Source: a virus. From it: DNA of 64,000 nt. The stretch is taken from IMG/VR virus record IMGVR_UViG_3300028844_002785, positions 23,129 to 87,128 of that record. One strand, written 5' to 3'. This document shows, piece by piece, positions 22,262 to 41,451 of the stretch (within the stretch, counting starts at the first letter, position 1; each line of letters begins with the position of its first letter). A program made the position numbers and the translations under genes. The notes under the pieces are model-generated. The model had not been told where the DNA came from. It saw only the letters and a program-made list of their open reading frames with translations, and searched no databases.

Positions 22262-23632
22262 ATGTATAATTCAGAAAACCTTCAAGAGAAGTGGGCTCCC
22301 GTACTCGAGCACACCGGTCTTGATAACATCAAAGACAATCATAGACGCGCAGTTACCGCTGTTCTTCTAGAAAACCAAGAACGTTTCATGCAAGAAGAGC
22401 GTGGAATGCTTACTGAGACTCCAACCAACTCTGCTGGTACTGGTGGTTTTTCAGGTTCAGGTGCTAACCCACCTGTTGCTGGTTTCGATCCTGTTCTAAT
22501 CAGCTTGATCCGCCGTTCAATGCCTAAGTTGATGGCATATGACATCTGCGGTGTCCAACCAATGTCTGGTCCTACTGGACTTATCTTCGCAATGCGTTCA
22601 CAACGTGGTACTGACCGCGATGGTAACGGTGCGACCCCTAACGTATTCACTAACGAAGCATTCTACAACGAGACTCCAACTGGATTCTCTGCTGATGACG
22701 GTGCATATTCTGCCGCAACTGGCGAAGCTGAAACCAACCCTTCAGTTCTTAACGCTTCTTCACCTGGTAACTATGCCGCTGTCGGTGGTATGAACACCGC
22801 GACTCAGGAAGCACTTGGATCTTCTTCAGGAACCGCTTTCCGCGAGATGTCATTCTCGATTGAGAAAGTTGCTGTTGAAGCAAAAGGTCGCGCTCTGAAA
22901 GCTGAGTATTCACTAGAACTCGCTCAAGACCTTAAGGCGATCCATGGTCTTGACGCTGAAGCAGAACTTGCTAACATTCTTTCTGCTGAAGTTCTTGCTG
23001 AAATCAACCGTGAAGTTGTACGTACAATCTACGTAACTGCAAAACCAGGTGCTCAGAACAACGTTGCTAACGCAGGTTCATTCGACCTAGACGTTGACTC
23101 CAACGGTCGTTGGATGGCAGAGAAGTTCAAAGGACTTATCTACCAGATTGAAAGAGATGCTAACGCGATCGGTCAAGAGACTCGTCGCGGGAAGGGTAAC
23201 TTCATCGTCTGTTCTGCAGACGTTGCAAGTGCTCTAGGTATGGCAGGCGTTCTTGATTACGCACCTGCTCTAGGTGGTAACAACGGTTTGGCAGGTGTTG
23301 ATGACACCGAGTCAACTCTAGTTGGTACACTTAACGGTCGTATTAAGGTCTATGTTGATCCTTACTCTGCTAACATTGCAGACGATCACTTCTACGTCAT
23401 GGGTTATAAGGGTACTTCTGCATATGATGCAGGTCTCTTCTACTGCCCATACGTTCCTCTCCAGATGGTCCGTTCCATCGGTCAGGACACATTCCAACCA
23501 AAGATTGGTTTCAAGACTCGCTACGGCATGGTCGCGAACCCATTCTCCCGTGGAACCACTCAGTCAAGCGCTGCATTGACTGCAAACGCAAACGTCTACT
23601 ACAGACGTACTCGCGTTCTCAACCTTATGTGA
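22262..23632 (+). CDS. gp23: Major capsid protein gp23
   Basis: GVQPMSGPTGLIFAMR, ELAQDLKAIHGLDAE, FYCPYVPLQM, FQPKIGFKTRYG. Confidence 0.99.
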   Translation: MYNSENLQEKWAPVLEHTGLDNIKDNHRRAVTAVLLENQERFMQEERGMLTETPTNSAGTGGFSGSGANPPVAGFDPVLISLIRRSMPKLMAYDICGVQPMSGPTGLIFAMRSQRGTDRDGNGATPNVFTNEAFYNETPTGFSADDGAYSAATGEAETNPSVLNASSPGNYAAVGGMNTATQEALGSSSGTAFREMSFSIEKVAVEAKGRALKAEYSLELAQDLKAIHGLDAEAELANILSAEVLAEINREVVRTIYVTAKPGAQNNVANAGSFDLDVDSNGRWMAEKFKGLIYQIERDANAIGQETRRGKGNFIVCSADVASALGMAGVLDYAPALGGNNGLAGVDDTESTLVGTLNGRIKVYVDPYSANIADDHFYVMGYKGTSAYDAGLFYCPYVPLQMVRSIGQDTFQPKIGFKTRYGMVANPFSRGTTQSSAALTANANVYYRRTRVLNLM

Positions 23633-39851: not shown

Positions 39852-39983
39852 ATTTCCTCCATGTCATATTTAATTTTTAAAAAATAATATAGTTAATTTC
39901 ATATCATAAGCACCTCTATTCTACTACTATATAGGTTACTTTGTGTTTATTCACTAACATTTGTGTAATTTAAATATAAGTAT

Positions 39984-40012
39984 AAAAAAAGAGAGGGTTC
40001 TTAACCCTCTCT
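39984..40012 (-). terminator. Rho-independent terminator (minus strand) after the DUF4278-like gene
   Basis: agagagggtt-aag-aaccctctct followed by a T-run. Confidence 0.85.
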
Positions 40013-40025
40013 GTGAAGTAAGTTA

Positions 40026-40193
40026 TCACTTTGTATACAGATGACCGCGATAGCAAAATGTACCATGGGTCTCTTTTGATTCTACACAACGAGTAGAGTA
40101 CTCAACACCACGATATGAGGTGTGTGTAATCTGTGCGTCGTGAAGTGCAGATGCTTTGTTGATCTGCTTCTTGATCATGTTTAGTGTGTTCAT
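40026..40193 (-). CDS. DUF4278-like small protein (55 aa)
   Basis: Two YRG motifs (SYRGVEY, CYRGHLY); RBS AGGAG before ATG 40193; lies downstream of a glutamine-riboswitch-like RNA. Confidence 0.75.
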   Translation of the reverse strand: MNTLNMIKKQINKASALHDAQITHTSYRGVEYSTRCVESKETHGTFCYRGHLYTK

Positions 40194-40227
40194 TGTGTTA
40201 CTCCTAAAGTAATGAGGGTTTTTAATC

Positions 40228-40460
40228 CCCGTTCCTTCAGTCGTGTGCGTCCCAATACCATTGACATTCTGGTGCTGAGTCCTTAAGGGTCTCAACTAAC
40301 TCAATCTTAAGCTGATTGTTAAGATCATTATTGTTCTCAATCTTCAGCATGATAGCATCAGTTTGAGTACAGGTGAGTGTTGTATAGAATAATAGTTCTA
40401 GCATGGGATGAACGGCTCCGTTCCGCGACTTACTTGCGTCCGATTTCTCGGATGAACGAC
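40228..40460 (-). ncRNA. Tandem glutamine riboswitch-like RNA (glnA / Downstream-peptide type), second aptamer split by an ORF
   Basis: Aptamer 1: CGTTCA-TCCGA-GAAA-TCGGA-CGCA-AGTAAGTCGC-GGAACG. Aptamer 2: CGTTCA-TCCCA...TGGGA-CGCA-CACGACTGAA-GGAACG. It precedes a DUF4278-like gene, the known context of this riboswitch class. Confidence 0.75.
40237..40404 (-). CDS. 55-aa ORF nested in the riboswitch P2 loop (not in the ORF track)
   Basis: MLELLFYTTLTCTQTDAIMLKIENNNDLNNQLKIELVETLKDSAPECQWYWDAHD-stop. Confidence 0.65.
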   Translation of the reverse strand: MLELLFYTTLTCTQTDAIMLKIENNNDLNNQLKIELVETLKDSAPECQWYWDAHD

Positions 40461-40466
40461 AGGTCT

Positions 40467-40495
40467 ATTATAGACCTTATATAGTATTTAGTCAA
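40467..40495 (-). promoter_or_regulatory. sigma70 promoter driving the riboswitch transcript
   Basis: TTGACT-17nt-TATAAT; predicted start near 40460, the first base of aptamer 1; inverted repeat aggtcta-tta-tagacct covers the -10. Confidence 0.75.
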
Positions 40496-40496
40496 G

Positions 40497-40584
40497 TATA
40501 AATAATTATGTGTCTTTCGTGCGGCACACTCTACATTCGGAAAATACCATTTAATGGTACGGGTTTCGCACCGTACCATTTTTT
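40497..40584 (+). ncRNA. Candidate late small RNA (late promoter, hairpin, terminator)
   Basis: TATAAATA at 40497, stem gtgtc-tttcgtgc-ggcac, then aatggtacgg-gtttcgca-ccgtaccatt with a T-run; no convincing ORF inside. Confidence 0.45.
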
Positions 40585-40601: not shown

Positions 40602-40656
40602 AATTCGATTGCCTTCGGGGATCACACAAAAAAACTCGCTTACTAAGGAGCATAAA

Positions 40657-41103
40657 ATGACGGGACTCACACGTTATACGTCCAGTGACATGGGCAAAAT
40701 TCTTGATGCTGTAGGAAAATATAGTGTCGGACTTGATGATGTTTTCCACAGGTTACATTCATATGGTATGGATAATCCTGGTGGTTCATATCCTCCATAT
40801 AATATTGTAAAAGAATCGAACGTTAAATGGCGTATCGAACTAGCACTGGCTGGATGGTCAAGGGATGACATTGAAGTCACTACAGAAACCAATGTTTTGA
40901 TCATCAAGTCCAAGTCTGCGAAGGATGATAATGATGTAGAATATATGCATCGTGGTGTAGCAACTCGCACCTTCGCTAGAGGTTTCAACTTATCTGACGA
41001 TGTTGAAGTTGGAGAAGTTAAATTTGAAAATGGTATGTTGATTGTTGATCTTAAAAGAATTATTCCAGATCATCAAAAATTGAAAACATATGAGATTGAA
41101 TAA
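40657..41103 (+). CDS. hsp20: Small heat-shock protein Hsp20
   Basis: YPPYNIVK, IELALAG, YMHRGVATRTFARGF, FENGMLIVDL; start moved to ATG 40657 after the RBS. Confidence 0.95.
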   Translation: MTGLTRYTSSDMGKILDAVGKYSVGLDDVFHRLHSYGMDNPGGSYPPYNIVKESNVKWRIELALAGWSRDDIEVTTETNVLIIKSKSAKDDNDVEYMHRGVATRTFARGFNLSDDVEVGEVKFENGMLIVDLKRIIPDHQKLKTYEIE

Positions 41104-41199: not shown

Positions 41200-41451
41200 A
41201 TGAACCTGCATGTAATAGAGTTAATCAATGAGAAAATTGTAGTTGCTGATATTGAAGAACTTGATGAAGAACCATCTTGTTTTCTTAAAAATTGTAGAGA
41301 GATAATCGATACTGATGGTACAATAACATTTAGAAAATGGCCTATGTACACAGATGAAACCGATACATTAATCTATTCAAATCGTATTATAACTATTTCA
41401 ACTCCATCTGATGAAGTAGAATCTCTTTATAAGCAATCAATTAATTCATGA
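41200..41451 (+). CDS. Conserved hypothetical protein preceding gp43
   Basis: EPSCFLKNC...KWPMYT; RBS ggag; ATGA coupling to gp43. Confidence 0.7.
   Translation: MNLHVIELINEKIVVADIEELDEEPSCFLKNCREIIDTDGTITFRKWPMYTDETDTLIYSNRIITISTPSDEVESLYKQSINS

Follow-up and report, generated by a model that had tools for sequence, protein, structure and literature searches.

How does an RNA aptamer take shape when a whole protein-coding gene stands between its two halves? The question is raised by a messenger leader in a 64,000-nucleotide (nt) stretch of viral DNA, positions 23,129 to 87,128 of the 87-kb contig in IMG/VR record IMGVR_UViG_3300028844_002785, which at its full length is called the window here. 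All elements of this riboswitch locus read on the minus strand, where two units resembling glutamine riboswitches stand ahead of a small gene of the DUF4278 type and the second unit is split by an open reading frame (ORF) of 55 codons. Judged from sequence comparison, the leader is two glutamine-type cores with swapped strands, nested rather than side by side. The explanation that best accounts for the locus as a whole, to which we assign a probability of about 0.7, is a strand-swapped double glutamine aptamer whose second P2 stem (P2') closes around the gene, acting as a glutamine ON switch with reciprocal control.

The first unit runs CGUUCA-UCCGA-GAAA-UCGGA-CGCAAGUA-AGUCG-C-GGAACG, with its GGAACG at 40424-40419 and the linker GAGC next. 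The second runs CGUUCA-UCCCA, the 55-codon ORF, and UGGGA-CGCACA-CGACU-GAAG-GAACG, with its CGUUC at 40414-40410; the units of such doublets lie 3-6 nt apart. An earlier reading of the bare sequence (the original prediction) had pointed out both CGUUCA/GGAACG sets, the complementarity of AGUCG and CGACU, and the ORF at 40404-40237, and all of these are in place. The elements of the RNA, from 5' to 3', are as follows.

40454-40458, minus strand: CGUUC, 5' strand of the outer P1, pairing with GAACG at 40234-40230; seen in CGUUU/AAACG co-variants, the Rfam alignment of ORF-free relatives, and RNAalifold.
40439-40452, minus strand: UCCGA-GAAA-UCGGA, P2 hairpin of the outer aptamer; 41 closing-stem types in 154 unique relatives, all paired.
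40431-40438, minus strand: junction strand CGCAAGUA, in which CGC is the pocket and triplex strand (a role taken from PMC6698751) and AAGUA supplies one half of the E-loop; agrees with the RF01739 consensus ACGGAAGUA.
40426-40430, minus strand: AGUCG, 5' strand of P3, pairing with CGACU at 40243-40239.
40410-40423, minus strand: GAACG-GAGC-CGUUC, inner hairpin P1'; G 40418, which opens the loop, is a candidate for the inner pocket's linchpin G.
40404-40408, minus strand: UCCCA, 5' arm of P2'; the nested AUG takes its A from the last base of this arm.
40237-40404, minus strand: nested gene of 55 codons, phrog_504 (T4-GC_430 in GenBank).
40250-40254, minus strand: UGGGA, 3' arm of P2', 149 nt after UCCCA; it also encodes W51 and the start of D52, codons invariant at three positions.
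40244-40249, minus strand: CGCACA, inner junction strand; 121 of 154 relatives have CGCAAA and 33 have CGCACA.
40239-40243, minus strand: CGACU, 3' strand of P3; the nested stop UGA (40239-40237) begins with its U.
40229-40238, minus strand: GAAG (40238-40235, second half of the E-loop), GAACG (40234-40230, 3' strand of the outer P1), and the linchpin G (40229); matches the RF01739 consensus GAAGGAACG.

In the proposed fold, the first CGUUC and the last GAACG, P2, the E-loop (AAGUA/GAAG), and P3 would form a canonical type-1 glnA aptamer, and inside P3 a second three-way junction would be built from P1' and P2'. The hallmarks of glutamine-I riboswitches are found at this locus: a CGUUC/GGAACG helix closing a three-way junction, a covarying P2 hairpin directly after CGUUCA, the E-loop strands ACGNAAGUA and GAAG together with a P3 that here holds a very large insert, and a leader position 5' of a DUF4278/IF17-like or nitrogen-metabolism gene.

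Evidence for this topology comes from variation among relatives, for which 154 unique doublets were parsed from loci obtained by blastn, from IMG/VR, and by motif scan. P1 is canonical in 141 of them, 11 have an inner flip (GCAACG...CGUUGA), and two combine the flip with an outermost change (CGUUU...AAACG); none of the 154 has a half-changed P1/P1' pair. These 13 variants favor the nested fold, because all nested pairs are kept in them and both side-by-side P1 helices are mismatched. The helix that the original prediction had drawn between AGUCG of one unit and CGACU of the other is also upheld, with 142 relatives having AGUCG/CGACU, compensatory changes in six (AGUCA/UGACU in four, AAUCG/CGAUU in two), wobble pairs in another six, and disruptive changes in none. 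Only the two units together complete the E-loop, AAGUA standing after the first P2 and GAAG before the last GAACG alone, and the inner hairpin loop, 3-6 nt in length, always begins with G. By nearest-neighbor estimates, the core helices are worth -22.8 kcal/mol when nested versus -14.4 kcal/mol when side by side.

Relatives without the ORF are doublets of ~90 nt (e.g., L091:8336-8422, L111, L120, and L137) in which a simple hairpin replaces it. RF01739, the Rfam model for the glutamine-I riboswitch, scores 38.4-43.6 bits on four ORF-free relatives, above its gathering threshold of 35, and Infernal aligns these four as one outer aptamer in which the first CGUUC pairs with the last GGAACG, P3 is AGU/ACU, and the second unit is a 38-48-nt insert in P3. 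RNAalifold, applied to eight ORF-free relatives, predicts the outer P1, P2, P3, the inner GAACG-loop-CGUUC hairpin, and P2'. With the ORF deleted in silico, the window agrees with ORF-free relatives at 59 of their 60 invariant columns and folds nested.

The predicted kinship of the window itself with the Rfam glnA and Downstream-peptide (RF01704) families holds in part. At the gathering thresholds there are zero matches in the window; in E-value mode, RF01739 matches 40415-40460 with 26.3 bits (E 0.0019), short of gathering, and RF01704 matches with 21.7 bits, below its cut-off of 33, and in both cases the first unit alone is detected. The locus is missed by standard scans because the gene splits the aptamer. 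A covariance model made from eight ORF-free relatives matched the window at 40334-40460 with 30.3 bits; we judged this partial alignment spurious, probably owing to limits on match length or insert size. Of the interlocked tandem aptamers originally proposed, the two-core glutamine-riboswitch-like RNA stands, whereas an aptamer 1 that is a self-contained CGUUCA...GGAACG unit followed by an aptamer 2 is not supported, given the 13 variants, the Rfam alignments, and RNAalifold.

The ORF in the loop is, to judge from its conservation, a real gene. Its AUG begins on the last base of the UCCCA arm, and its final codons, W-D-A-H-D-stop (UGG GAC GCA CAC GAC UGA), are spelled by the 3' half of the aptamer, much as first proposed, with the stop reaching from CGACU into GAAG. 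The median pairwise ratio of nonsynonymous to synonymous substitution rates (dN/dS) is 0.20 in frame versus 0.78 and 2.07 in the shifted frames, which bears out the coding status claimed for it, and entropy at codon positions 1, 2, and 3 is 0.55, 0.24, and 0.77, the second being the most conserved. Relatives range from 49 to 66 codons with the frame kept, and 182 of 186 have the same stop, UGA or UAA, within CGAC-UGA-AGG. Within the last five codons (W-D-A-H/N-D), only the first base of codon 54 varies (giving H or N), a pattern that points to an overlapping RNA constraint. Across 66 diverse members of the family, the N-terminus is hydrophobic, C12 is invariant, C47 is present in at least 90%, and the helix pattern is kept; AlphaFold predicts three helices with a predicted local distance difference test score (pLDDT) of 81. 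PHROGs places phrog_504 in its category of unknown function, and searches with the protein gave nothing significant in Pfam, hypothetical clusters only in the ESM Atlas, and no match below an E value of 2.7 in Foldseek against the Protein Data Bank (PDB).

Covariation also extends across the gene. The long-range UCCCA/UGGGA stem, another element of the original prediction, occurs in 19 closing-stem types (UCUAU/AUAGA and UCCUA/UAGGA among them). In 143 of 144 ORF-bearing relatives, four or more contiguous pairs are kept across the ORF, versus at most three in random controls, and in 137 of the 144 the AUG lies 4 nt into the 5' arm. We take this long-range stem, on the strength of its covariation, to be real. 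A related arrangement is seen in the other loop: in roughly a quarter of the doublets (L032:365-565 and about 30 other loci, e.g., L062, L087, L100, and L107), the P2 loop of the first unit contains an ORF of ~66 amino acids, phrog_6471, whose AUG pairs with CAU beside its own stop and whose stop covaries with the bases before the AUG (UCUUAUG/CAUAAGA, UCUCAUG/CAUGAGA, UCCUAUG/CAUAGGA). No phrog_6471 ORF was found on the window's contig. Profile-profile comparison by hhalign joins the phrog_6471 family to the nested family of the window (77.6% probability, E 1.9e-5, both Cys aligned), and this match suggests that an aptamer-plus-gene module has been duplicated. In one relative (L077:157-597, minus strand of that locus), the first-unit P2 loop holds, in antisense, a 146-amino-acid HNH endonuclease (PF13392, E 9.7e-11), for which the conserved aptamer DNA may serve as a homing target.

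The arrangement in the window is the prevalent one among relatives. Among 110 unique doublets retrieved by RNA motif only, the ORF is in the second unit only, as in the window, in 73, in both units in 27, in the first only in 2, and in none in 8, so that 102 (93%) have an ORF in at least one P2 loop. Conversely, 34 of 39 unique leaders that were found via the nested protein alone keep the 22-nt core exactly. By blastn, 419 phage records match the riboswitch region, nearly all from Synechococcus cyanomyoviruses, and 134 of these cover at least 80% of it; the nested protein is encoded in 199 IMG/VR stretches. A search for the doublet junction in the genomes of bacteria and archaea is uninformative on host carriage, because only part of the matches were listed and, among those, almost all were chance, with one Synechococcus metagenome-assembled genome contig having the true layout. 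Individual relatives show further variation. One (L078) has another CGUUCAUCCCAUC... start ~40 nt after the doublet, possibly a third unit, and in another (L075:427-590) unrelated sequence lies directly upstream of the second-unit CGUUCA, where the 3' half of the first unit normally stands. A related contig (L091:1021-1116) contains a PhotoRC-II RNA (RF01717, 57 bits), and there is no RF01717 match in the window.

Does the inner junction bind a ligand of its own? In the glutamine-II riboswitch's crystal structure, the pocket is formed by a CGUUC:GAACG helix, a G before and a G after GAACG, and a CGC strand after the hairpin (PMC6698751). Both junctions of the window carry all of these nucleotides (CGUUC, GGAACG and the following G, and CGC), the G after GAACG being, at the inner junction, the first base of the hairpin loop. 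Because the pocket nucleotides are present in both, the inner junction resembles a glnA core that is without the E-loop and has P3 in common with the outer one. One of only two nonconserved pairs in the glutamine-II helix is C5:G36 (PMC6698751), and this is exactly the pair that is flipped in the 13 variants. The inner junction looks like a second glnA-like pocket and is a putative glutamine site.

Downstream of the aptamer, three further features would carry its signal to a target.

40235-40240, minus strand: CUGAAG, proposed anti-Shine-Dalgarno strand; overlaps P3 and the E-loop and covaries with CUUYAG.
40201-40209, minus strand: CUUUAG (40209-40204), overlapping the Shine-Dalgarno sequence AGGAG (40205-40201) of the DUF4278 gene.
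40026-40193, minus strand: gene for a DUF4278/IF17-like small protein of 55 amino acids, phrog_545; putative regulated target.

In line with the association with DUF4278, likewise foreseen, the downstream protein matches phrog_545 strongly (E 6e-36) and PF14105 weakly (DUF4278; E 5e-4, 20.7 bits, below the gathering cut-off of 25.3), and it has two YRG-type motifs. Between the 3' end of the aptamer and this ORF lie a small hairpin and then AGGAG. CUGAAG (40240-40235) is complementary to CUUUAG; among relatives, CUAAAG is always found with CUUUAG (53) and never with CUUCAG (0/54), and CUGAAG is found with either. The same anti-Shine-Dalgarno helix occurs in the minimum-free-energy fold of the leader. 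A CUGAAG/CUUYAG helix fits the published glutamine ON switch, because there the binding of glutamine withdraws a strand that opposes the ribosome binding site (PMC6212724, PMC6698751), and DUF4278 genes are the usual glutamine-riboswitch targets and are switched on (PMC6212724). Two side observations concern the same region. The start of the DUF4278 gene, AUGAAC (40188-40193), is complementary to GUUCAU in the P1 5' strand (40452-40457) and paired with it in the minimum-free-energy fold; 102 relatives have AAC and 8 have AAT as the gene's second codon, compared with 152 and 98 elsewhere in these genes, and the pairing may be a second mask of the start codon. Some relatives (L001, L010, and L047) have, between the last GGAACG and the Shine-Dalgarno sequence, an extra domain of ~45 nt (GGGAAAAACGGAUCC...GAGAAGGUU...CACCC) in place of the window's short GGGAUUAAAAACCC hairpin.

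A mechanism can be proposed from these parts. An early host-type promoter would make a transcript of ~480 nt. At high glutamine, both pockets would lock P1, P3, and P2'; the locked fold would take CUGAAG away from CUUUAG, free AGGAG, and turn on the DUF4278/IF17-like gene, and it would bury the context of the nested AUG and lower translation of the nested gene. At low glutamine, the anti-Shine-Dalgarno helix would form and the nested gene would be translated, each passing ribosome unwinding P2', P3, and P1. A ribosome stopping at the UGA would melt the anti-Shine-Dalgarno helix, and since it would sit on that strand, some translational coupling to the downstream gene is possible. On this single mRNA, the sensing of glutamine probably competes with translation of the nested gene; the anatomy implies that ligand binding and passage of ribosomes over the ORF would exclude each other. 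That the RNA binds glutamine and controls the two proteins reciprocally is what we infer. The fullest version of this scheme is a more tentative proposal, to which we would give somewhat less than even odds: that the aptamer must close around a translated gene, that glutamine binding and ribosome traffic are antagonistic, that the result is a reciprocal switch in which low glutamine yields the Cys-pair protein and high glutamine the IF17-like one, and that the two pockets were built by strand swapping of a tandem repeat.

How well does the strand-swapped double aptamer fare against other explanations? The two units could be plain neighbors, each CGUUCA pairing with its nearest GGAACG, with an AGUCG/CGACU kissing helix bridging two aptamers. 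The consensus sequence allows this, glutamine doublets in tandem have precedent (157 in the count of PMC9481103), the 26.3- and 21.7-bit Rfam matches align locally to the first unit, and in one relative (L111) RF01704 reaches 34.0 bits, over the cut-off of 33, on the second unit plus the last GGAACG. Nonetheless we find it distinctly improbable, as 13 of 154 relatives have a mismatch at the junction-proximal pair of both local P1s and intact nested pairing; these break the P1s that independently folding, contiguous aptamers would use and keep the swapped ones. Each unit would also have half an E-loop, the first AAGUA without GAAG and the second GAAG without AAGUA, the bridge would be a pseudoknot, the core energy is 8.4 kcal/mol worse, and the higher-scoring Rfam alignments, like RNAalifold, are nested. 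Nor does the window show the glutamine-II form, an H-type pseudoknot with GGAACG in a 3' hairpin loop and a score of 33 bits, as RF01704 gives 21.7 bits and covariation favors nested helices. Alternatively, the gene may be a passenger in an insertion-tolerant loop, co-transcribed and having no link to glutamine, with the switch weakened or idle in ORF-bearing phages. The existence of ORF-free relatives, the HNH homing endonuclease in the first-unit loop of L077, and the wide variation in loop length speak for this. It is nevertheless unlikely when set against the invariant aptamer nucleotides flanking the ORF, the exact 22-nt core in leaders found through the protein, the covarying stem across the ORF, a start at a fixed offset in the stem arm and a stop in common with P3, the related ORF family that occupies the matching loop of the first unit and pairs its AUG with CAU beside the stop, and the presence of an ORF in 93% of motif-retrieved doublets. 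That the 150-nt insert is instead a noncoding RNA domain with an accidental ORF is scarcely credible, even though the minimum-free-energy fold pairs much of the insert internally. We rejected it on dN/dS, and the conserved second codon position, the frame and stop kept through 49-66-codon variants, the two Cys and helix pattern in 66 diverse members, and the confident AlphaFold model all oppose it as well.

Several points count against the strand-swapped double aptamer with its gene-enclosing stem. The compensatory changes in P1/P1' may represent only one or two evolutionary events, and the consensus, that of the window included, permits side-by-side pairing on paper. Even the best nested-aptamer fold is 6.6 kcal/mol less stable than the leader's minimum-free-energy fold. 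Avoidance of the A/C combination in the anti-Shine-Dalgarno helix is drawn from raw counts across related sequences, and G/A at that site also preserves the stop (UGA/UAA). The HNH endonuclease in the L077 loop implies that such loops tolerate insertions. Finally, the switch may rarely close in vivo, because its stem arms are ~150 nt apart and translation could separate them.

The locus is bounded by the following features.

40467-40495, minus strand: sigma-70-type promoter, with -35 TTGACT (40495-40490), a 17-nt spacer, and -10 TATAAT (40472-40467).
39983-40012, minus strand: intrinsic terminator, a 10-bp stem (40012-39990) and T run, which ends the ~480-nt transcript.

The near-consensus promoter said to fire into the aptamer is there, matching 11 of 12 consensus positions and ending 8 nt upstream of CGUUCA; TTGACT...TATAAT is also kept in relatives, and transcription is expected to start near 40460. 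Metatranscriptome contigs from two studies cover 40048-40496 in pieces and are a weak hint of transcription only, because a contig does not reveal where a transcript starts or ends or which strand it comes from, and the libraries may have contained DNA. An inverted repeat, AGGTCTA-TAA-TAGACCT (40461-40477, minus strand), contains the -10 TATAAT and ends immediately ahead of CGUUCA. Its arms reach 6 nt or more in 106 of 146 unique relatives versus 15 of 146 shuffles, and they covary (GGTCTA/TAGACC, TGGTA/TACCA, GGGTA/TACCC). This repeat may act as an operator, or it may form a promoter-linked stem-loop such as those described in T4-type phages. A terminator-like hairpin (40553-40580, plus strand; 10-bp stem and T run) separates the riboswitch promoter from the divergent hsp20 gene, and no obvious plus-strand gene lies upstream of this hairpin. 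The virus is a T4-like cyanomyovirus, judged from its neighboring genes, since hsp20 (40609-41103, plus strand, PF00011 match) and a family-B DNA polymerase gene beginning at 41448 adjoin the locus. The nearest named relative at the riboswitch locus is Synechococcus phage S-MbCM7, which has the same layout (KF156338, locus 183410-183864); its GenBank record lists the two small ORFs, T4-GC_430 and T4-GC_937, as hypothetical proteins and shows no RNA feature at this locus.

Few riboswitches are believed to occur in phages. In cyanophages, a survey from 2017 listed only two glutamine aptamers (PMC5473149), and glnA RNAs have been noted in a few of these phages (PMC5473149, PMC9964418). No description of strand-swapped pairing or of a gene inside a glutamine aptamer was found in the literature searched, which did not cover Ames and Breaker 2011. 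Here, 419 phage records match the locus, and most of them carry the ORF-split form that standard scans miss. If the proposal is true, abundant marine cyanophages would have a direct read-out of host nitrogen controlling an IF17-like protein, a likely glutamine synthetase inhibitor, and metabolite sensing would be tied directly to ribosome traffic. To our knowledge, a fold that works as inferred would be the first ligand sensor and translated ORF with common helices.

Among known RNAs, group I introns contain homing-endonuclease ORFs in peripheral loops, where the ORF is a mobile passenger and the RNA a ribozyme. The window resembles them in that an RNA fold is closed around a protein gene held in a loop, and the L077 loop does hold an HNH endonuclease; unlike them, its RNA is a putative ligand sensor on an mRNA, and the start and stop of its ORF are common with stems. 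With glutamine-II RNAs (Downstream-peptide, RF01704; PMC6698751), the window shares the pocket sequences CGUUC, CGC, and GGAACGG, with CGCA and not CGGA after the hairpin, and the C5:G36 pair that is variable there flips here, but the H-type pseudoknot is not needed and the score is 21.7 bits versus a cut-off of 33. The closest likeness in parts is to glutamine-I riboswitches (RF01739; e.g., the Synechocystis gifB/IF17 leader, PMC6212724), with which it has in common P1 CGUUC/GGAACG, a covarying P2, the ACGNAAGUA...GAAGGAACG E-loop, P3, the linchpin G, a place upstream of a DUF4278 gene, and, as in the published ON switch, an aptamer 3' strand that can pair beside the ribosome binding site. 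In contrast to these, P3 in the window holds a whole second glnA-like junction with one stem closed around a translated gene, and the aptamer halves are ~190 nt apart and missed at the Rfam gathering cut-off. Tandem glnA RNAs are known (PMC2864571), 157 doublets and four triplets having been counted (PMC9481103), and like them (PMC9481103, PMC2864571) the window has two glutamine-type cores in one leader. The published doublets have been treated as independent neighbors with their own expression platforms (pseudo-cooperative), whereas the units of the window swap P1 strands and have a common P3 and a single expression platform. A strand-swapped double aptamer would bear on the true folding of many of these published tandem glutamine doublets.

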